Shown here: piece by piece, positions 5,687-38,933 of the stretch
How positions within the stretch are numbered: position 1 is the first letter of the stretch
Layout: every line of letters starts with the position of its first letter
Source of the DNA: a virus
Taxonomy: Duplodnaviria > Heunggongvirae > Uroviricota > Caudoviricetes
Reading direction: 5' to 3' (one strand)
Length of the DNA: 39,402 bases
IMG/VR virus record: IMGVR_UViG_2541047754_000004
Made by a program: the position numbers and the translations under genes
The notes under the pieces: model-generated
Databases searched by the model: none
The model's input: only the letters and a program-made list of their open reading frames with translations
Told to the model about the DNA's origin: nothing

Positions 5687-5827
5687 TTGATAGGCTCCAA
5701 TAATTTAAAACACTTGCTTTGATATTTTTGTTAAGAGCAACCAAACTATATGTTCGGATAGTGGTTGGTTTTATTAACCGTTTTCCGCTTATCAATCACA
5801 GCAATTAAATCTTTACAAGGATTAGAT

Positions 5828-6049
5828 ATGAGCACTGACTCGCAAACAACCGATATTCAGGTCAAATGCCTGCATTGTGGAGCATGGTTTCCTTCAGCTA
5901 TATGGATTGGGGATCGTGAGTCCCTTCAGTCTGGAGTTTTGTTTGGGAACAAGCAACAATGCCCGAAATGTCATAAAATGACTGATTGTAATAAAGAAAA
6001 TTTCAAAGCTAGATTTAAGGATGGCGGATTTATAGGTACGAAAGTCTAA
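5828..6049 (+). CDS. Hypothetical zinc-ribbon protein (cargo gene)
   Basis: About 73 aa from ATG at 5828 (AGGA upstream); CxxC...CxxC; opposite strand to the tail operon; AT-rich. Confidence 0.5.
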   Translation: MSTDSQTTDIQVKCLHCGAWFPSAIWIGDRESLQSGVLFGNKQQCPKCHKMTDCNKENFKARFKDGGFIGTKV

Positions 6050-29218: not shown

Positions 29219-30520
29219 ATGCCAGACGTTCACGCACAACTTTCTCCATCATCAGCGCATCGATGGATGCGCTGCCCAGGAAGTCTGGCGCTGGAGGCCA
29301 CACAACCGGATAAAGAAACAACTTTTGCAATCGAGGGCACTGCAGCGCACGCGCTTGCTGAAAAAGTTCTACGAAACAGGCAAAGCCACCCGGAACACTA
29401 CGCCGGATGCAATGTTTCTATGTTTCTCGGCTCATACCCCCTTCGCGAAAATCCTGATGATAAATCGGGCCCACAGGTGGATGATGAAATGGTCGAAGCC
29501 GTCGGCCGGTATGTTGATACGGTCTGGACTCTTGCAAAGAATAATGAACTATTGGTTGAACAACGTGTTGATTTCTCACATATAACGGGTGTGGAAGAAT
29601 CTTTCGGAACTGCCGACGGCATAATCATCGCTGGTAACGAATTACAAATCCACGACCTGAAATATGGCAAAGGCGTCCGCATTGATGCAGAACAAAATGA
29701 GCAACTACAACTGTATGCTCTGGGTGCGCTTGAACAATTCAGCATGCTGTATGACTTTGAAACTGTAAGATTATTTATTCACCAACCAAGGCTCAACCAC
29801 GTTTCAGAATGGTCGTTAACCGTACAGGAACTTCAGTCTTTCGGTGAACGGGCGCTGGAGGCCGCAACCAGTGCGATCCTTGTTCTCAATATTGCTGAAT
29901 GCGAAGGCATTGAGACACTACCGCTGGAAAACTTCATACCTGGAGAAAAACAGTGCCGCTTCTGTAAAGCAAAAGCTATTTGCACTGCCCAGAAAATGCA
30001 GCATTTACAAACAGCGGCCAGCGATTTTGAAGATCTGACAAAGCCTGTCAGCGAAATAATCACCAATGCCAGCGCACGTGTACCTCTGTTAACCATTGAG
30101 CAGCTTGCAGAGATCTATAGCCAGGCCGACTTTATTGAATCCTGGCTAAAGGCAGTACGGGACCGGGTTCACAATGAACTCAATGCCGGACATCCGGTAC
30201 CGGGGTTTAAACTGGTAACAGGAAAACAAGGTAACCGGGCCTGGAGTGACGAAGAGGCAGCTCGCGCACTTCTGAAGGACCAGTTCAGGTACAAAACTGA
30301 AGAAGTATTCGACTTTAAACTTATTAGTCCCACAAAAGCCGAAAAACTTATCAAAAAGGCCAGTCCGCGCCGTTGGTCAAAAGTCGAGGCACTGATAACA
30401 CGAGCTGATGGTAAACCAACCGTCGTTCCCGAGTCAGACCCACGCCCCGCACTCAATATCAACCCTGTAAATGATTTCGACGACGTATCCGACGATACGC
30501 TAACCGCAGACCTCATCTGA
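29219..30520 (+). CDS. Cas4-like PD-(D/E)XK nuclease (DUF2800-type)
   Basis: 433 aa; N-terminal [22 protein letters not shown] nuclease core, C-terminal [10 protein letters not shown] cysteine cluster. Confidence 0.8.
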
Positions 30521-30535
30521 TTTAAGGAAATACCC

Positions 30536-31084
30536 ATGAAACTGAAGCTGAACAATGTTCGTCTGGCCTTCCCGTCTCTGTTTGAAGCTAAAACAGTAAA
30601 CGGCGAAGGCGATCCACGTTTCTCCGCAGTATTTTTAATGTCACCCAAACACCCACAACTGGAAGAAATCCGTAAAGCTATGAAGCAGGTAGCGAAGGAA
30701 AAATGGGGGGAGAAGTGGGAGTCCATTTATAACCAGCTGGAGAAAAAACTCAATCTGTGCCTGCATGATGGTGATGAAAAAGCAGAGTATGAAGGCTTCC
30801 CCGGCAATTTCTTCCTGAATGCTGCTAACAAAGCGCGCCCAGCTGTTCTTGATCGCGATCGTTCGCCACTTATTCAGGCTGATGGACGTCCCTATGCAGG
30901 GTGCTATGTAAACGCCGTTATCGATATCTGGGCACAGGACAATAATTTCGGTAAACGCATTAATGCCTCACTCGGCGGAGTCCAGTTCCTGCGAGACGGC
31001 GATGCATTCGCTGGCGGCGGAGTGGCAAGCGCTGACGATTTCGACGATATCAGCGAAGGCGCAGACGCCGATACGCTCATTTGA
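30536..31084 (+). CDS. DUF2815-type protein (putative ssDNA-binding) of the PolA module
   Basis: 182 aa; acidic C-terminal tail DDFDDISEGADADTLI; conserved position after DUF2800. Confidence 0.72.
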   Translation: MKLKLNNVRLAFPSLFEAKTVNGEGDPRFSAVFLMSPKHPQLEEIRKAMKQVAKEKWGEKWESIYNQLEKKLNLCLHDGDEKAEYEGFPGNFFLNAANKARPAVLDRDRSPLIQADGRPYAGCYVNAVIDIWAQDNNFGKRINASLGGVQFLRDGDAFAGGGVASADDFDDISEGADADTLI

Positions 31085-31099
31085 GTAACAATGCAGCCC

Positions 31100-31600
31100 T
31101 CATTGAATTGGGGGCTGTTTAGATTCCTGTTCCTCTTTCAATGAACGAACTTTGCTATCATATATCCTGAGTGCATATTCGTTAATTTGCCTAGTTAAAT
31201 CGGAATCTAGCTTATAATATTTTTCAGCCCACTCAATTAAATTCTTCCTCATTATTATCTTCGGTTCAATTTTATTAATTCTATTTAAATGCATATCACG
31301 ACCGCGTTCAAAATTAAGATATGCTTGTTCACTAACGCCCTGTCCATCGATTGTGTAGGTAGTACCACTTGCACGGAAAGAGAGATGAGTCTTTTTACCA
31401 GCATATCTTTCATTATGTATAGCTTTATCGGTATTCACTATTCGAAGCCATGTCCAAAACTCATCATTAAGAATGTATTTATCAATTATTTTTAATATTA
31501 AAAAATCTCTACCTATTAGTAATAGAGGCATCAAAAAATAAACCCCAAGAAAACTCAACGCCGCTGTAATAATAGTTGAAAAAGATATTGATAACTCCAT
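31100..31600 (-). CDS. Membrane-anchored hypothetical protein (cargo gene)
   Basis: About 166 aa from ATG at 31600 (GGAG upstream); one N-terminal TM helix; AT-rich; opposite strand to flanking replication genes. Confidence 0.6.
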
Positions 31601-31621
31601 TTTACTCTCCAAAGGTTAGAC

Positions 31622-33685
31622 ATGAACAATATACTATGGGGCGACCTGGAAACCTATTGCGAAATCCCGATTACGAACGGCACCCATGCGTATGCCGAAG
31701 GCGTTGAAGTGATGCTTTTCGCATGGGCTATCAACGACGGGCCAGTAAACGTGTGGGATATCACTGCCGGAGGTGGTATTCCACACGGCTTATACGAAGC
31801 AATCGCAGACCCTGAAACCCTGCTTTATTTCCATAACTCTCACTTCGACCGCACCGTTCTGCGTTATGCAATGCCGCGACTGGCACCGCCAGTCGAACGT
31901 TGGCGCGACACGATGGTGCAGGCGCTGGCGCACGGTCTCCCGGGGGCTCTGGGGGAACTCTGCGAAGTACTAGGCGTCCCGCAAGACAAAGCGAAGGACA
32001 AAGAAGGTAAAGCGCTGATCCAGCTGTTCTGTAAGCCACGCCCGAAAAACAGCAAACTGCGTCGGGCCACCAGTAAAACCCACCCGGAAGAATGGCGGCG
32101 CTTTGTTGCTTACGCCGGACTGGATATCGAGGCAATGCGCGAAGTCTATAAACGTCTGCCGAAGTGGAATTATCAGGGGACAGAACTGGCGCTCTGGCAT
32201 CGTGATCAGCAGATCAATGACCGGGGCGTCTGCATGGACATGCAACTCGCACGCGCTGCGATCGAAGCGGTAGACCAAGAACAAAAGCGCCTGGCAAAGC
32301 GTACACAGGAAATGACTGATGGCGAAGTGCAGGCAGCCACACAACGAGACGCGTTGATTAAGCACATTGTTGAATCCTACGGTGTGGAGCTACCAGACAT
32401 GCAACGCAGTACTCTGGAACGTCGTATTGCCGACCCCGATTTACCATCTGCCGTGAAAGAACTGCTGGCTATCCGCCTGCAAGCCAGTACTACCAGCACC
32501 AGTAAATACAAGGCACTGATGAAAGGCGTAAGCCACGACGGGCGCTTACGCGGTACGCTACAGTTCTGCGGGGCGTCACGTACCGGTCGTTGGGCCGGAC
32601 GGCTATTCCAGCCCCAGAACCTTCCCCGCCCTTCACTAAAACAGGAACAAATAGACGAAGGCATCGAAGCACTGAAAGCCGGATGTGCAGACCTGCTGTT
32701 TGACAATATCATGGAACTAACCAGTTCAGCGTTACGTGGCTGCATTATCGCGCCAACAGGCAAAAAACTGGTGGTAAGTGACTTGTCAAACATTGAAGGC
32801 CGTATGCTGGCATGGCTGGCGGGAGAGGAATGGAAACTGAATGCATTCAGAGAGTACGACGCCGGAACGGGTCCGGACTTATATAAACTGGCGTATGCAA
32901 AAGCTTTCGATATTGCACCAGATGATGTTGATAAACACATGCGTCAGATCGGTAAAGTCATGGAACTCGGTCTGGGTTATGGAGGTGGTGTAGCGGCTTT
33001 CATCACTTTTGCTCTGGTTTACGGTCTCGATCTCGACGAGCTGGCGAACGCCGCACTGCCAAACATTCCCCGCGATGTTATCCGCGAGGCGAAAAGCTGG
33101 TACGACGAATCGGTTAAACGCAAGTCAACCTACGGGCTTTCTGAACGGGTATTTATCGCCTGCGACTCACTTAAACGTCTCTGGCGCAGGGCGCACCCGG
33201 CGACCTGCGATTTCTGGTACGAACTGGAGCGCACCGTCCGCACAGCAATCGCCACACCGCAAAAAACATTGTATTGCGGCTATCTTAAAATCCGACGTGA
33301 TGGCGCGTGGCTGCGCATACAGCTACCATCCGGACGCGCTGTATGCTACCCGTCTCCGGTTATCGAAAAAGGGAATATCACCTACATGGGTGTTAACTCT
33401 TATTCGCGTAAATGGCAACGACTCAAAACCTACGGCGGAAAGCTGGTGGAGAACGTCACCCAGGCAGCCGCCCGCGACGTTCTGGCCGGAAACATGCCGC
33501 TTATCGAAGATGCCGGTTACAGTATTGTGTTGACGGTACACGACGAGGTGATCACCGAAGCACCTGACACAGAAGATTTCAACGATAAAGCGCTTTCCGC
33601 GCTTCTCTCCACTAACCCCGAATGGGCACCCGATATTCCGCTGAATGCTGGCGGCTTTGAGGCGTACCACTACCGTAAGGAGTAA
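31622..33685 (+). CDS. Family-A DNA polymerase with 3'-5' exonuclease domain
   Basis: 687 aa; exo motif WGDLETY, motif [17 protein letters not shown], motif C TVHDEV. Confidence 0.9.
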
Positions 33686-33692
33686 TACAAAG

Positions 33693-34721
33693 TCACTTAA
33701 AATCCCTAGATAACATCTGCGAAGCAGCTGATGCTGTATAAACTCCAGTATGTTTTATTTCTGCAGCTATTTTGTAGCCATCCTCCTTAAACTGCGTAAG
33801 CATTGAGCTTAAGGAACCAAGTTTTTTAGTATTCAACACCATTCTAACGACAGTTCCTTCATGATAATGACCTAACTCTATATGCTTCTTTCCGTGTTCA
33901 TCTAGATATATTGCATGGTCACCGCTACAAATAAGAAAACTACCGCCAAGTTTACATATACGGCTGATCATATAAAGGCCAAATCCCGAATTATGCCAAG
34001 GATTTCTTGTATTGATTCTCGCCCCCTTAAAATTTTTACTAGAAATAGATGGCATTAACGCTAACTGAATGGCTTCAGAATCATTATCAGCTTCTATATA
34101 AGGGTTCTTCGATAGAGATTTTTTCATTCCTATACCATTATCAGAAATTGTTATTTCAACACGGTCATAAGAAGGCCAATACTGTGCACAATATTCAATC
34201 ACCTTTGAATCACTATGTTCCACAACATTACGCATAATTTCCCTAATAGAAAATGTCAAAGCATCAATGAGGTCGCCTTCTTCTTGGCGAGCAAGAATCT
34301 TTGCTAATTTACCAGATCGTTCCTCAACTATCTCTTGCACCTCAGTATATTTATCGTTAGCTTCATCTATAACTGTTTGAACACGAAGAATTGTAAATGG
34401 AACAAAATTATTATTTCCATCTGTACATCCCGGTTCACGGCCATGCTTTAACCCGAAGGCTCGAAAGAATGCCATATTTGCGGCATAATCCTTATTCTCA
34501 TGCCCGCTACAAAAAAGTTTAAAACCATCAATGTTCTTTTTCTGTTTTCGATGGAAGTCTCGAATATGCTTAGCAACATAAACCATTGTAAATGGTTCAA
34601 TCCTTCCCATATGCGAAAAATCGATTGTTATTTGCTGTTGACCTGAATGTTTTTCAATTTCATTGCAAAAATTAAATATCTTTTCAGGATTACATGAAGA
34701 GGGAAATAAGATTCGTGACAT
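33693..34721 (-). CDS. GHKL (histidine-kinase-like) ATPase domain protein with unknown N-terminal domain (cargo gene)
   Basis: 342 aa; ATG at 34721 with AAGGA upstream; motifs RNVVEHS, ITISDNGIGM, NSGFGLYMISR; AT-rich; opposite strand. Confidence 0.7.
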   Translation of the reverse strand: MSRILFPSSCNPEKIFNFCNEIEKHSGQQQITIDFSHMGRIEPFTMVYVAKHIRDFHRKQKKNIDGFKLFCSGHENKDYAANMAFFRAFGLKHGREPGCTDGNNNFVPFTILRVQTVIDEANDKYTEVQEIVEERSGKLAKILARQEEGDLIDALTFSIREIMRNVVEHSDSKVIEYCAQYWPSYDRVEITISDNGIGMKKSLSKNPYIEADNDSEAIQLALMPSISSKNFKGARINTRNPWHNSGFGLYMISRICKLGGSFLICSGDHAIYLDEHGKKHIELGHYHEGTVVRMVLNTKKLGSLSSMLTQFKEDGYKIAAEIKHTGVYTASAASQMLSRDFK

Positions 34722-34781
34722 ATTAATTCCTTATACTTGTTTTATTTGATACTACCCAATAAGTGTTAACAAGGCAAATTT

Positions 34782-35069
34782 ATGTCTTATGAACGTGAGA
34801 GCCTTATCGAAAAGCACCTCGTCGCTGAAGTGAAAAAGGCTGGCGGTGTGGCCTTTAAGTTCGTATCTCCCGGTCGCCGCTCGGTACCGGATCGCATTGT
34901 TCTGCTACCCGGCGGCCGTCTTGTTTTCGTTGAATGCAAAGCACCCGGCAAAGCACCACGCGCCGACCAGTTGCGCGAGCACGAGCGGCTGCGCGAGCTG
35001 GGCTTTACCGTGGTGGTGCTGGATAGCAAAAATCTGGAGGAAATTATTTTAAGCCGCAATAAAAGATAA
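34782..35069 (+). CDS. VRR-NUC domain nuclease
   Basis: 95 aa; PDRIVL...FVECKAP (D...ExK). Confidence 0.8.
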   Translation: MSYERESLIEKHLVAEVKKAGGVAFKFVSPGRRSVPDRIVLLPGGRLVFVECKAPGKAPRADQLREHERLRELGFTVVVLDSKNLEEIILSRNKR

Positions 35070-35081
35070 AAGACTTATGCT

Positions 35082-35879
35082 TTAATCCGTATTTTTAACA
35101 CGTGTTTCGAAACACTCTTTTAATTTAGCTATTTCCTTTTTAGAGGACATGACTGTGAATTTCATCCCTTTTAAATCATTAACAAATTCAAATTTTGCGC
35201 TATTGGACTCACAATCACCAACAACAAAACCACTACCAAATGAATTGAGCAACACTTTAGTATTACTACCATCTACCATATAATATTCGTTATTTTTAAA
35301 TGCAGTAACCTTCCCGAAGGTATAGCTCAATATCAATAATGTCATCACCCCTAAAGGAAAAGCTGATTTTAGGATTTTTAAATCGATATAATAAAATACG
35401 TCTTTATACTCTGCAAGCCTCCCAAATTTTCTAATGCTATCCATATGATGTTCGTGTCTCTTACTATGGATTGACGCGGACACCGCATTGTGGTAATTCA
35501 ACAAAAGCAGAGCAAATAATAAAATATCTCCAACACTCATCACAGAGGTTTCGGAGAAATAACCAAAAGGCCAATGGAATCCTATTATGTAAAAATTAGG
35601 TATTAGCATAACCACTATAAATATAATAAATGGAACATAATATTTCCCTTTCAAATCAAACATCAATGTCGCGTATAAGGCACCGAGAAATAAAAAACTA
35701 AAAAACAAAAGCCATACAGCCGAATACAATAGCGTATTTAAATCTATTTTAATAAAAAGGGCTGGATAGCCATAATACGATGCAACACCTTTCTGAAAAG
35801 AATATGCCATCGCATAAGCTAACGCTGAAAAAACAGTTAATAAAGAAACTTGTTTTGTAAGTATTTTTGCCAGGGGCAT
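35082..35879 (-). CDS. Polytopic membrane protein with soluble C-terminal domain (cargo gene)
   Basis: 265 aa; ATG at 35879 with GGAGG upstream; several hydrophobic helices in first about 150 aa; AT-rich; opposite strand. Confidence 0.65.
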   Translation of the reverse strand: MPLAKILTKQVSLLTVFSALAYAMAYSFQKGVASYYGYPALFIKIDLNTLLYSAVWLLFFSFLFLGALYATLMFDLKGKYYVPFIIFIVVMLIPNFYIIGFHWPFGYFSETSVMSVGDILLFALLLLNYHNAVSASIHSKRHEHHMDSIRKFGRLAEYKDVFYYIDLKILKSAFPLGVMTLLILSYTFGKVTAFKNNEYYMVDGSNTKVLLNSFGSGFVVGDCESNSAKFEFVNDLKGMKFTVMSSKKEIAKLKECFETRVKNTD

Positions 35880-35941
35880 ACCCGCCTCCGTTAGTTATAT
35901 ATAGAGAGAGAATTGACACATATTCTACCATAGGTATATTA

Positions 35942-37336
35942 ATGAATAACATATTCCACCCCCGACTTTATCAAAACCTCATAATCAATCACCAAACCGA
36001 CATTCTGCGCGGCAACATCTGGGCAGGGATGGGGATGGGTAAAACCGTAGCGACACTCACCACGCTGGAAGATCTTTTCATGGCTGGAGCAGAAACACAC
36101 CCCGCGCTGGTCCTCGCGCCGCTACGCGTTGCAGCAAGCACCTGGCCTGATGAAGCTGTTAAATGGGGGCATCTGCGTAATATTGAGGTACAGCCGATCA
36201 TCGGTAACGCCAAAGCGCGCTCTACGGCGCTGGCGAACAGCAACGCGAGCGTGTTCACCATCAACTACGATAACCTTGTCTGGCTGGTTGAAGAATTGGG
36301 AGAACGATGGCCGTTCGGAACTGTCATTCCAGATGAAAGCACCCGGCTAAAATCCTTCCGGCTGCGAGGTGGTGGTAAGCGCGCGGCGGCGCTGGGCAAA
36401 GTGGCGCATAAGTATGTCCGGCGCTGGATAAATCTCACCGGTACGCCAGCACCGAACGGCCTGGTAGATTTGTGGGGACAATCGTGGTTTGTGGACCAAG
36501 GGCAACGTCTCGGGCGCACTTACGGCGCGTTTACCTCACGCTGGTTCAACTCGATACAGTTTCCGGGACAGAGCTGGACTAAACTGGAACCTTTTGCTCA
36601 CTCACAGGGTGAAATACAGCGAGCATTAGCCGATGTGACCCTCTCGCTGGATGCGGCCGACTGGTTCGATATCAAAGACCCCATCCATAACGTAATCCGC
36701 GTGGATATGCCCCCGAAGGCCCGTCAGCAGTATCGTGAAATGGAAAAGGAAATGTTCCTCGAGCTGAATAGCGAAGGCATCGAAGCACCGAACGCCGCGG
36801 CAAAGACACTGAAGTGTCTTCAAATCGCTAGTGGCGCAGTATACACAGACGACACCGGAAGTTGGTCAGAACTGCATGACACCAAACTACAGGCGCTGGA
36901 CAGCATACTGACCGAAGCAGCTGGCGCACCTGTGCTGGTTGCTTATCACTGGAAACACGATCTTGAACGCTTGCTTAAAGCATTCCCTCGCGGTCGTCAC
37001 CTCGACCAGGATCCACAGACACTGCGCGACTGGAATTCCGGAAAGATTCCTGTTCTCTTTGCACACCCAGCCAGCGCGGGCCACGGCCTGAACATGCAGG
37101 ACGGCGGAAATATACTGGTATTTTTCTCACACTGGTGGGACCTGGAGCAATATCAGCAAATTATTGAACGTATCGGCCCCACCAGGCAGATACAGGCCGG
37201 ACACAATCGTCCGGTATTTATTCACCACATTATTGCTGCCGACACTATGGACGAAATGGTGATGGAGCGGCGCAACTCAAAACGAACAGTGCAGGACATC
37301 CTGCTCGATGCCATGAAAAAGAGAGGTATAGCATGA
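35942..37336 (+). CDS. SNF2/DEAD-like superfamily-2 helicase
   Basis: About 464 aa from ATG at 35942; GMGMGKT (motif I), VIPDES (II), LTGTP (III), AGHGLN (VI); start uncertain (ORF track gives TTG at 35867). Confidence 0.82.
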   Translation: MNNIFHPRLYQNLIINHQTDILRGNIWAGMGMGKTVATLTTLEDLFMAGAETHPALVLAPLRVAASTWPDEAVKWGHLRNIEVQPIIGNAKARSTALANSNASVFTINYDNLVWLVEELGERWPFGTVIPDESTRLKSFRLRGGGKRAAALGKVAHKYVRRWINLTGTPAPNGLVDLWGQSWFVDQGQRLGRTYGAFTSRWFNSIQFPGQSWTKLEPFAHSQGEIQRALADVTLSLDAADWFDIKDPIHNVIRVDMPPKARQQYREMEKEMFLELNSEGIEAPNAAAKTLKCLQIASGAVYTDDTGSWSELHDTKLQALDSILTEAAGAPVLVAYHWKHDLERLLKAFPRGRHLDQDPQTLRDWNSGKIPVLFAHPASAGHGLNMQDGGNILVFFSHWWDLEQYQQIIERIGPTRQIQAGHNRPVFIHHIIAADTMDEMVMERRNSKRTVQDILLDAMKKRGIA

Positions 37337-37533
37337 GCGAGAAACCCGACGATTTACTCACCCCGGATGAAGTATGCCAAAAGTTAGGTATTACACAGAA
37401 AACGCTATGTGAGTGGAATATTAAGCATCGTCATCGGGCTATCCTGGCACCAATTCGTTTCAGTGCAAAAGTAGTTCGTTATGAGCGCCGAAATGTCGAC
37501 GCTTTTATTCAAAAATGTCGCAGCCAGTATTAA
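37333..37533 (+). CDS. AlpA/Xis-like small DNA-binding protein (putative excisionase)
   Basis: 66 aa; LTPDEVCQKLGITQKTLCEW HTH; ATGA coupled to helicase; adjacent to integrase. Confidence 0.7.
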   Translation: MSEKPDDLLTPDEVCQKLGITQKTLCEWNIKHRHRAILAPIRFSAKVVRYERRNVDAFIQKCRSQY

Positions 37534-38933
37534 CCTCGCCGCCGTAGCAATGCCACCTGCGCAAGTATGCTCCGCTCGTGAGCCTCGAAAGCTTCGCGCT
37601 TTAACGCAATCTCTTCCTGCAAAATCTCATCAGAAAAGTCGTAATGTTCTGCCATCGGGTCATCTGACTTGCTGGAGTGGTGAAGGCAAAGGAGGCTGAT
37701 TTCCCTTCGGTCTGATCGGGAATAGCCTCTTTCCTTCATCAAGGCAATAACATTGCTCTTAAGGAATTTACGGCACATCGTATTAAATGCACCGTCTTTC
37801 CCTTTAACAGTCCCATCATGTTTTATTCCTTTTACAGCCCCATCCGGGCTGTATGTTTTCACTAGCTTATCCAGTGATCGTTTTGAAAATGGCTGCATTG
37901 GATCACGCGGCTGCAAAAATACATAATCCCTGTTGCACTCAGGAACTGAATCACGCCAGGCTTTCTGCTCGTCGATAATCCGCCGGATCTCAGGCGTTAT
38001 CGGCAGGCGGAAAGCCTTTTGTGTTTTCATAGCCCCTCGCATGCCGATAACCCCTTCCGGATAAACAATTTCACCAGCCTCCTCGTGAACGTAGTCCCAG
38101 CGCAGGTTATGGACATTAATCGGACGAACACCAGTGATGATCATGAAGCGAACAGCATTCTTCTGGTGTACAGAGGTGCAGGCAGCAACATTGAGCCAGA
38201 GTCGGGCGATTGATTCAATATCGGTAAAAAGCCGTGTGGGGGTAGGTTTCTGTACGCGGGAGGAAACATAATCATCTGGCAGACTGGCGGCAACATTGCG
38301 GCCGTTGCAAAGAGTAGGTGCGCAGAACTTCCAGAACCGACGGAGCTCGGCAAACAACTCCAGGGCGTTATTGTTCGAGCGAGTGGCGATCCACTCGTCC
38401 AGCACTTCCACCAGCCGACTGTATGTTACGTCGCTGAACACCTCGCGCTCGCCGAACGTTGATTTAATCCGGTCGATACGCACCCCGTAGGTTGTGAAAC
38501 TGTCCGGGCTCAGCTTCTGACGGGCTACTTTGGCTTTGAGGTCATCCCGGTACATTTCCAGCGCTGCATGTACGGACTCTGCCCGCAGTCCACCGTCAGC
38601 CATACCTAGTGCTTTTTCGCGCGCCAGCTGGATAGCGAGCTCCGGCCACTCGCCGAGCTTTTTACCTTTGAGGCCCATCTTTTTTGGAAACTCGGCGTAA
38701 AATGTAACCTTACCGGCTTTGCTGAAATCGATACGGAGATAGTTCTCTTTTTCGTATTTGGAACGGCGAGCCACGCCGGAAGCAGCGAGGATGATTTTGG
38801 CGGCAGCAACACAGATTTTCATGTGTGCGCTGGTATAGGGGGGTTTACAGGCATCCCATTTTTCAGAAGCGGCTAAAACATCGTCATTATTGGGGCTATC
38901 CGGATTATGTGTTACAGTGCGCGGCATTCTCAA
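37530..38933 (-). CDS. Tyrosine integrase (phage integrase family)
   Basis: 467 aa; AAGGA upstream of ATG at 38933; C-terminal catalytic region with R...H..R...Y-type spacing; last phage gene before chromosomal yfhL. Confidence 0.85.
   Translation of the reverse strand: MRMPRTVTHNPDSPNNDDVLAASEKWDACKPPYTSAHMKICVAAAKIILAASGVARRSKYEKENYLRIDFSKAGKVTFYAEFPKKMGLKGKKLGEWPELAIQLAREKALGMADGGLRAESVHAALEMYRDDLKAKVARQKLSPDSFTTYGVRIDRIKSTFGEREVFSDVTYSRLVEVLDEWIATRSNNNALELFAELRRFWKFCAPTLCNGRNVAASLPDDYVSSRVQKPTPTRLFTDIESIARLWLNVAACTSVHQKNAVRFMIITGVRPINVHNLRWDYVHEEAGEIVYPEGVIGMRGAMKTQKAFRLPITPEIRRIIDEQKAWRDSVPECNRDYVFLQPRDPMQPFSKRSLDKLVKTYSPDGAVKGIKHDGTVKGKDGAFNTMCRKFLKSNVIALMKERGYSRSDRREISLLCLHHSSKSDDPMAEHYDFSDEILQEEIALKREAFEAHERSILAQVALLRRRG

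Follow-up and report, generated by a model that had tools for sequence, protein, structure and literature searches.

Three consecutive gene junctions in the replication module of an Escherichia coli prophage are genuine variable accessory slots, and in the sequence described here each of them is occupied by one AT-rich gene that lies on the strand opposite to the replication genes. This sequence, referred to below as the window, is the whole stretch of 39,402 nucleotides of IMG/VR virus record IMGVR_UViG_2541047754_000004 (Caudoviricetes), and it represents a temperate, myovirus-like E. coli prophage with yfhL as its neighbour at the integration site. The replication operon runs rightward in the order DUF2800 nuclease, DUF2815 single-stranded DNA-binding protein (SSB), DNA polymerase PolA, VRR-NUC nuclease and SNF2 helicase, and the intervening genes are designated g1, g2 and g3. 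A preliminary description of the region, made from the sequence alone, had reported that this conserved order is broken three times by opposite-strand genes, and that these genes are AT-rich, each with its own ribosome-binding site (RBS); both statements were confirmed by the present analysis.

Taken as a whole, it is probable that the slots are delimited by recombination and carry moron-type genes that aid the lysogen, most likely by acting against other phages. The doubt that remains about this explanation concerns mostly the function of the genes and not their anatomy. The slots, their cargo and the associated elements are as follows (G+C content, GC; open reading frame, ORF; Shine-Dalgarno sequence, SD).

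31085-31621: slot 1, DUF2815-PolA junction; 73-2556 bp among relatives, about 75-80 bp when empty; 15 ORF families
31100-31600, minus strand: g1, 166 amino acids (aa), predicted membrane-anchored protein with an N-terminal hydrophobic hairpin; RBS GGAGAG; GC 0.327
33686-34781: slot 2, PolA-VRR-NUC junction; 215-1822 bp, the smallest form of 215 bp consisting of one small ANR-like gene; 30 ORF families
33693-34721, minus strand: g2, 342 aa, predicted STAS plus GHKL (SpoIIAB/RsbW-like) kinase/ATPase; SD AAGGA; GC 0.361
34749-34777, minus strand: promoter-like element of g2 found in a relaxed scan; -35 TTGCCT (34772-34777), 17-nt spacer, -10 TAGTAT (34749-34754)
35070-35941: slot 3, VRR-NUC-SNF2 junction; 156-2427 bp, 156 bp when empty; 26 ORF families
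35082-35879, minus strand: g3, 265 aa, predicted polytopic membrane protein; RBS GGAGG; GC 0.327
35896-35911, minus strand: polymorphic (TC)n(TA)n tract upstream of g3, between a -10-like TAGAAT and the RBS

Variable slots in related modules

The comparison was based on 89 related modules from genome and viral-contig collections and on six annotated E. coli or phage records. Core genes were placed by tblastn, and slot counts refer to the 86 modules in which all three junctions were available. These 86 modules display 72 distinct three-slot architectures. AT-rich antisense genes are present in slot 1 in 45 of them and in slot 3 in 55, but in slot 2 in only five; slot 2 usually contains short genes on the plus strand (ANR-like, DUF4406, DUF7446), to which a TIR gene may be added. 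All three slots are occupied by antisense genes in just four of the 86 modules, the window included. The families of g1, g2 and g3 occur in 10, 5 and 17 of the 86 modules, respectively, and are not syntenic core genes. Among 159 E. coli prophages of this type, g1 was detected in one (89% identity), g2 in eight and g3 in 17, and g2 was additionally found outside this phage in three more complete E. coli genomes. The earlier suggestion that these junctions are hotspots for cargo is thereby upheld, as the slots of relatives are either empty or nearly so, or filled by many unrelated families.

The deviating composition of the three genes is equally clear. They have the lowest GC of all 51 ORFs in the window (mean 0.492, standard deviation 0.054), with z-scores from -2.4 to -3.0, and their GC at third codon positions is 0.26-0.31; in composition they differ from the flanking genes. 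The genes are tightly packed, with convergent stop codons 15, 7 and 12 bp apart and divergent starts separated by 21, 60 and 62 bp for g1, g2 and g3, respectively. In the case of g1, the listed ORF reaches back to a TTG at 31612, and the ATG at 31600 fits the 166-aa length of its relatives. All three genes are under purifying selection, the ratio of nonsynonymous to synonymous divergence (dN/dS) being 0.17-0.22 for g1, 0.04-0.05 for g2 and 0.25-0.29 for g3.

Slot boundaries and cassette exchange

Alignment of the window DNA with 97 related loci defined the slot edges at the start and stop codons of the core genes and allowed the alternative cargo of each slot to be listed. At slot 1, homology stops at position 31082 in 54 loci, next to the DUF2815 stop at 31084, and restarts at 31620-31631, around the PolA ATG at 31622; coverage by relatives falls from 85 loci to two. 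At slot 2, homology ends at 33673-33701 (the PolA stop is at 33685) and resumes at 34782, the VRR-NUC ATG, in 66 loci. At slot 3, it ends at 35040 in 43 loci and resumes at 35943-35969, adjacent to the SNF2 ATG at 35942. No direct or inverted repeats were found at the slot edges. Insertion of a transposon, an insertion sequence (IS) or an integron cassette was considered and rejected, since the edges are without repeats and the breakpoints coincide with core start and stop codons. The same two features point to cassette exchange by homologous recombination in the flanks and not to transposition.

When synonymous divergence is compared, the cassettes show signs of long residence as well as of recent exchange. 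Between the window and loci L064 and L075, g2 shows a dS of about 1.0 and a dN of 0.045, equal to PolA in the same pairs. In strain A4, g2 is 100% identical while PolA has a dS of 0.09 and VRR-NUC a dS of 0.31, and in strain A16, g1 has diverged (dS 0.33, dN 0.07) between flanks with a dS of 0.08 and a dN of 0.005, a fourfold excess at synonymous and an approximately tenfold excess at nonsynonymous sites. VRR-NUC itself reaches a dS of 0.31-0.57 in pairs where that of PolA is 0.08, far exceeding the other core genes, and the variation in its final 29 nt follows the slot-3 cassette, which indicates that VRR-NUC hitch-hikes with the cargo. Every carrier of g2 is missing the usual small slot-2 genes; g2 is thus an alternative cassette and no addition. 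The preliminary description had envisaged three separate insertions at these hotspots. The hotspots stand, but the cassettes are not simple recent insertions; they are old polymorphic units swapped through the core flanks.

Alternative cargo of the slots

The alleles that replace g1, g2 and g3 in related modules include several with links to phage defence. In slot 3, these are BstA (PADLOC, 1.4e-115), a PDC-S42 protein (6e-40) and a weakly TIR-like protein; the families of this slot also include DUF6338 and Dcm. A CAP12/Pycsar-type TIR protein of family PDC-S35 (7e-109) occupies slot 2, and a SIR2 protein of family PDC-S25 (3.8e-158) or a DUF4145 protein occupies slot 1. The presence of known or candidate anti-phage genes at the junctions, which had been raised as a possibility, is therefore established among the alternative alleles (BstA, PDC-S35, PDC-S25 and PDC-S42).

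BstA is a prophage-encoded abortive-infection protein that is soluble and binds DNA (Owen et al., bioRxiv 10.1101/2020.07.13.199331). In sister prophages it is the single antisense gene of slot 3, making it an allelic alternative to g3. Its sequence is unrelated to those of g1, g2 and g3, and unlike g1 and g3 it is no membrane protein. The commonest antisense families of slot 1, F9 and F14 (in L002, L020, L091 and other loci), encode membrane proteins of about 210 aa with a GC of 0.29-0.35. These two families are remote homologs of each other (hhalign 97.8%), unrelated to g1, and form a second lineage of hypervariable slot-1 membrane proteins. No description of these slots was found in the literature on DUF2800/DUF2815 prophages and PDC families.

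The predicted g2 kinase

The product of g2 is confidently predicted to fold into a STAS domain followed by a SpoIIAB-like, anti-sigma-type GHKL kinase domain. It matches HATPase_c in Pfam (1.3e-7) and, with no hydrophobic segment, is a soluble protein. The earlier picture of an ATPase between two membrane proteins is supported by this match and by the hydrophobic segments of g1 and g3, but g2 is no generic ATPase. A PADLOC match to DrmA was rejected, as it scores 29 bits over a short region of a 1750-position model and reflects local GHKL-like similarity. The family comprises at least 552 detected members of 63-75% identity, found in Serratia, Morganella, Pantoea, Vibrio, Shewanella, Pseudomonas, Aeromonas and others, and it reaches Gammaproteobacteria and beyond. 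In 43 aligned members, the invariant residues are E161 and N165 of the N-box, D194, G196 and G198 of the G1 box (D194-x-G-x-G198), and G246 and G248 of the G2 box (G246-x-G248-L).

The closest characterized relatives are CapK, with a helix-turn-helix (HTH)-STAS-GHKL architecture, and VapK, with STAS-GHKL. These are kinases that are activated by single-stranded DNA (ssDNA) and phosphorylate a STAS partner, which is either the repressor CapS or VapS, the antitoxin of the PIN toxin VapC; VapKSC shields E. coli from phage Bas42, and CapK is a regulator that responds to DNA damage and is itself no effector (Chambers et al. 2026, PMC13373217). Using the VapK and CapK sequences from the supplementary files of that article, the g2 family profile aligned with VapK colinearly across both domains (hhalign 93.9%, E 1.5e-7, 227 columns), N165 falling on VapK N160, and the kinase domain was also recovered by BLASTP (2e-7). 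With CapK, only the N-box/G1 region aligned, at 49.5% probability. Judged by these alignments, g2 is a remote homolog of VapK and CapK, and it probably works like a sensor kinase. It resembles them in its STAS and GHKL architecture, the catalytic Asn, the G-boxes and a link to immune genes and mobile elements, but it differs in having no adjacent CapS or VapS, no PIN toxin, no HTH domain and an extra tail. Compared with the SpoIIAB-SpoIIAA and RsbW-RsbV pairs (identity 10-21%), g2 fuses both folds in one polypeptide, and no sigma factor or separate antagonist is encoded near it.

The extra tail, Y-x-ASAASQMLSRDF, is invariant in the family and lies at the C-terminus. It belongs to a Ser/Ala-rich stretch, residues 300-342 (33696-33824), that includes Y328-x-ASAASQMLSRDF341, is modelled with low confidence and lies outside the VapK alignment. 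This segment could serve for autophosphorylation or as a pseudo-substrate.

In the window, the immediate neighbours of g2 are PolA and VRR-NUC on the opposite strand. The 60 bp upstream of g2 hold the promoter-like TTGCCT-17-TAGTAT followed by AAGGA, an arrangement kept in alleles at a dS of about 1 and in copies outside the phage. A homolog of 75% identity occupies slot 2 of a related prophage of Serratia quinivorans. In E. coli ET490 (locus L006, 8999-10288), an 86%-identical g2, with a piece of a VRR-NUC pseudogene still connected to it, is located in a tRNA-Thr island next to DptFGH, and in E. coli TUM14664 (L007, 8999-10801) a copy lies outside the prophage, with the end of an IS1 abutting the -35 edge of the promoter-like block. 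Further homologs are found in defence islands of Shewanella, Pseudomonas, Plesiomonas and metagenomic contigs, next to Zorya-like, Gabija-like, restriction-modification, Mrr, CAP12-TIR, HEPN_LA2681, DUF4365, DUF3644 and reverse-transcriptase genes. One homolog of Morganella psychrotolerans (L154, 7001-8032; 74% identity) stands alone between trkH and ychF, and no mobile-element or defence genes were found near it.

Across the loci examined, g2 homologs have no recurrent partner gene, and none of ten neighbouring genes scanned with Pfam encodes a STAS domain. The genes downstream of g2 in Shewanella and Pseudomonas were considered as a partner or as relatives of g3 and were rejected, their products being soluble, mutually unrelated and not conserved across loci. 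HEPN and PD-(D/E)xK motifs seen by eye in these downstream proteins were not confirmed by Pfam, and HEPN_LA2681 was found only at another locus. The conserved promoter-like block of its own, together with the missing recurrent partner, makes g2 look like a self-contained single-gene cassette.

Two side observations concern further copies of g2. A metagenomic contig (L125, 139-2263) holds two g2 paralogs in tandem. One reverse-transcriptase family adjoins g2 in two unrelated loci (L015, 9337-10839; L130, 4008-5504), lying downstream in one and upstream in the other.

No description of orphan kinases of the g2 type was found in the searchable literature. It is conceivable, though doubtful, that the class represents widespread solo STAS-GHKL single-gene immune sensors without a cognate STAS substrate or toxin, in this prophage family perhaps cooperating in trans with the hypervariable membrane proteins of neighbouring slots. 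Such solo kinases might use the invariant Ser-rich tail at their C-terminus, or they might phosphorylate a conserved target of the host or of a phage.

The membrane proteins g1 and g3

The g1 protein has one or two N-terminal hydrophobic segments, with transmembrane (TM)-like stretches at residues 10-28 and 21-39, and gave no match in Pfam, NCBIfam, PHROG or PADLOC. Its ten homologs are all from Enterobacterales and always lie in slot 1 of related prophages. For g3, hydropathy and a low-confidence AlphaFold2 model indicate about five TM helices and a small C-terminal beta domain; the model was built from a seven-sequence alignment (pLDDT 50.5) and was used for topology only, with no fold search. 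Homologs of g3 with 57-87% identity carry a precomputed PF27470 'TfpB' annotation, and a local Pfam scan of g3 itself gave no match. This name was rejected as a clue to function, because in the literature it denotes a pilus ATPase of Acinetobacter, type IVb pili or chemicals and provides no functional link. The g3 family forms 75 representative clusters among 1.84 billion proteins, and its distant relatives are all named hypothetical.

Within this phage family, members of the g1 and g3 families always keep the same slot and strand, g3 being confined to slot 3. Where core proteins are 92-99% identical, g1 alleles share 38-86% identity and g3 alleles as little as 26-34%. Kinship of g1 with other slot-1 membrane proteins, or of g3 with DUF6338 and other slot-3 proteins, was rejected (hhalign below 1%). 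In Enterobacter hormaechei (L106, 7001-7792), a g3 homolog of 63% identity lies antisense between dinI and lambda-P/DnaT replication genes of a lambdoid prophage; its presence in this unrelated phage shows that the g3 family moves between phage types.

Fast-evolving, dispensable inner-membrane proteins of prophages mostly act in superinfection exclusion or abortive infection, and the superinfection-exclusion membrane proteins of temperate phages include SieA and SieB of P22 and gp15 of HK97. By analogy, g1 and g3 are probably superinfection-exclusion or abortive-infection factors. The likeness is one of lifestyle and topology only (small or polytopic inner-membrane proteins encoded by fast-diverging, dispensable accessory genes); we know of no detectable sequence similarity between g1 or g3 and these proteins.

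Two further observations relate to g3. A decayed prophage remnant (L108, 7001-9845; L109, 1434-4278) keeps a g3 homolog, VRR-NUC and another antisense gene, with the SSB cut to 114 aa, which suggests that cargo is retained after decay of the phage. The TA run of the tract upstream of g3 measures 7, 9, 13 or 17 nt among otherwise near-identical alleles, and the length of (TC)n(TA)n could tune or phase-vary g3 expression.

Proposed function and alternative explanations

The favoured explanation is that related phages exchange entire cassettes, each consisting of promoter, RBS and ORF, through homologous recombination between the conserved genes on either side, a turnover that would involve neither transposition nor site-specific insertion. 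In the window, every slot would then hold a single moron-type gene oriented against the lytic operon. Transcription of the three genes would take place while the prophage is repressed and, once induction has occurred, would be countered by the lytic operon. The genes would be of advantage to the lysogen, most likely because they block other phages, and each would act independently. The predicted Ser/Thr kinase g2 probably senses an infection or DNA-damage cue and would phosphorylate a target encoded elsewhere, while g1 and g3 may act at the inner membrane against incoming phages.

Several results weigh against this explanation or limit it. With respect to expression, the convergent gene ends lie so close (7-15 bp) that there is no room for terminators; g1 has no recognizable promoter within 140 nt; and a generic scan for promoters and terminators returned counts equal to the shuffled expectation, so its output was not taken as evidence. 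Upstream of g3, promoter-like sequence is limited to the TAGAAT hexamer. With respect to function, none of the three genes matches a validated defence family in PADLOC, BstA is the sole experimentally established defence protein among the alternative alleles, and the PDC families count as candidate systems only. A number of further alleles fall outside defence altogether, among them Dcm and other methyltransferases, Nmad5, Rha, Bro-N, Arc, SprT-like, Band 7 and ANR-like proteins; the slots are for this reason better regarded as general accessory sites that are rich in defence genes. As for g2, searches with phmmer, using CapS and the g2 STAS domain as queries, detected no STAS-only substrate gene beside it or in the window, and the aromatic residue that stacks on ssDNA (W68 in CapK, F54 in VapK) is replaced by an invariant R40. 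Since both the STAS partner gene and the ssDNA-contacting aromatic are missing, g2 is classified as a remote orphan relative that belongs to neither described system.

An unlikely alternative is that the cargo serves the phage life cycle and not defence, with g2 tuning induction or replication and g1 and g3 acting in lysis timing, lysogenic conversion or envelope modification. The precedent of CapK, a DNA-damage-responsive regulator and not itself an effector, would fit such a role, as would the location of g2 inside the replication module, its co-divergence with PolA in one lineage, and the many other slot alleles that are regulators (ANR, Rha, Arc, Bro-N). However, the phage family can do without all three genes: most of the 159 E. 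coli prophages lack them, as do the induced phages. Homologs of g2 are moreover common in bacterial DNA that is not of phage origin, either within defence islands or by themselves on the chromosome, and antisense orientation with foreign composition is typical of morons expressed by lysogens.

It is likewise improbable that the three genes form one system, in which g2 senses and acts in trans through the membrane proteins g1 and/or g3. The preliminary description had left joint action undecided, and natural variants rule out an obligate unit, since each pair is separable. MINF_2E carries g2 and g3 with other slot-1 cargo, and A4 carries g2 without g1. In IAI1, g3 is accompanied by a TIR gene in slot 2, and g3 without g2 is found there and in nine other genomes. 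A16 combines g1 with unrelated cargo in slots 2 and 3, and g1 without g2 occurs in A16 and six loci. L064 holds a g1-like gene, g2 and BstA, and g2 without g3 is seen in both L064 and L075. Apart from the window, the three genes were encountered together only in a contig that is probably its source. The co-occurrence analysis did leave a nominal association. All five g2 carriers have a g1- or g3-family protein, against 20 of 81 non-carriers (Fisher p = 0.0015), and stratification by lineage gave p = 0.028 and 0.084; these figures rest on about five independent events and are phylogenetically confounded. The Serratia prophage also pairs its g2 (75% identity) with a g3-like protein (hmmsearch 1e-33), and A4 pairs an identical g2 with a g3-family allele of 32% identity. 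Against a common system, g2 homologs outside the phage are solitary, as in Morganella, or stand beside unrelated genes, and in the module the three are interleaved with core genes of opposite orientation.

A role of the cargo in counter-defence, helping the phage to overcome host immunity, is very improbable. The same slots do hold anti-restriction tools (orphan Dcm, other methyltransferases and Nmad5 nucleotide modification), and an early replication-associated operon is a frequent home of anti-defence genes. But g1, g2 and g3 read against this operon and would therefore not share its transcript, anti-defence proteins are not typically membrane proteins or sensor-type kinases, relatives of g2 reside in bacterial defence islands and chromosomes, and VapKSC, the closest characterized relative, protects the cell.

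That the three ORFs are AT-rich filler or decaying pseudogenes, as their foreign composition and the failure of g1 and g3 to match any model in the scanned libraries might suggest, has practically no likelihood: it is refuted by the selection analysis (dN/dS of 0.04-0.29 with dS up to about 1), by intact frames with RBSs in many genomes and homologs in several genera, and by the invariant catalytic motifs and confident predicted fold of g2.

Core replication genes and prophage setting

The genes that delimit the slots, and the integration genes to their right, are as follows.

29219-30520, plus strand: DUF2800/PD-(D/E)XK nuclease; Pfam DUF2800 1.9e-110, PDDEXK_1 2.9e-10; kept in 87 of 97 related loci
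30536-31084, plus strand: DUF2815/Enc34-type ssDNA-binding protein, left flank of slot 1; Pfam Enc34_ssDNA-bd 2e-44
31622-33685, plus strand: family A DNA polymerase (PolA); Pfam DNA_pol_A 5.4e-14
34782-35069, plus strand: VRR-NUC nuclease, 95 aa, between slots 2 and 3; phrog_93 endonuclease 6.6e-31, RefSeq name VRR-NUC, no match in a Pfam scan
35942-37336, plus strand: SNF2-family helicase, right flank of slot 3; Pfam SNF2-rel_dom 1.7e-11, RefSeq gene of 1395 nt
37333-37533, plus strand: HTH_17 excisionase-like gene preceding the integrase; HTH_17 1.3e-5
37530-38933, minus strand: tyrosine integrase; Phage_integrase 3.9e-7

This PolA is present, at 95-99% identity, in 159 of 5426 complete E. 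coli genomes, so that the phage family, counted by PolA, occurs in about 3% of them; it is also found in several other Enterobacterales. The 11-kb right end of the prophage matches 19 complete E. coli genomes with 97-99% identity and a coverage of at least 80%, and in RefSeq relatives it adjoins the host genes yfhL, shoB and acpS, yfhL occupying the window from 39142 onwards. Further genes of the window code for a portal, baseplate J and a tape-measure-like protein, for two regulators, one a CI-like repressor (HTH and peptidase S24) and the other a Cro-like HTH protein, and for a primase of the VapE type. The replication module is also present in three induced GenBank phages, vB_EcoM-606R2 and relatives.

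The strongest sigma-70-like match of the region, at 35913-35940 on the plus strand (TTGACA-16-TATATT, 11/12), ends 1 nt before the SNF2 ATG at 35942. This element might restart plus-strand transcription past the antisense g3, or yield a leaderless mRNA. Outside the replication module, a 94-aa ORF (5765-6049, plus strand) with a GC of 0.382 (z = -2.0) lies antisense inside the block of baseplate and tail genes; it shows a weak zinc-ribbon match only and may be a further moron.

Relation to known hotspots and significance

P2-like prophages and P4-like satellites contain hotspots of anti-phage genes (Rousset et al. 2022, PMC9122126). The slots described here are comparable to these in their fixed positions between conserved genes, variable AT-rich cargo, many defence alleles and exchange among relatives. 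They differ in belonging to another phage family with the DUF2800-SSB-PolA-VRR-NUC-SNF2 replication module and a yfhL site, in forming three single-gene-sized slots at consecutive junctions of one operon, and in cargo that consists mostly of single antisense genes.

A second precedent is offered by the morons of lambdoid phages, a concept of Hendrix and colleagues, which are autonomous, differently composed genes located between phage genes; classical morons usually have their own terminator and are often oriented like their neighbours. The genes of the three slots share with them the position of a single extra gene between core genes, putative expression signals of their own, deviant G+C and variable presence, but here the gene ends lie 7-15 bp from convergent core stops and there is no terminator.

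Accessory and defence hotspots of prophages are thus already well known, and what appears to be new are these particular slots and orphan kinases of the g2 type. New anti-phage systems have repeatedly been discovered in prophage hotspots, and three compact, sharply bounded slots, holding dozens of unannotated single-gene cassettes beside known defence genes, provide a ready-made list of candidates. The most specific lead is the g2 gene, which would extend the CapK/VapK kinase family to an orphan form without an encoded substrate, raising the question of its substrate and its cue. The two hypervariable families, those of g1 and g3, may represent new exclusion proteins. These findings do not overturn current concepts; their value lies in the concrete, testable candidates that they supply.

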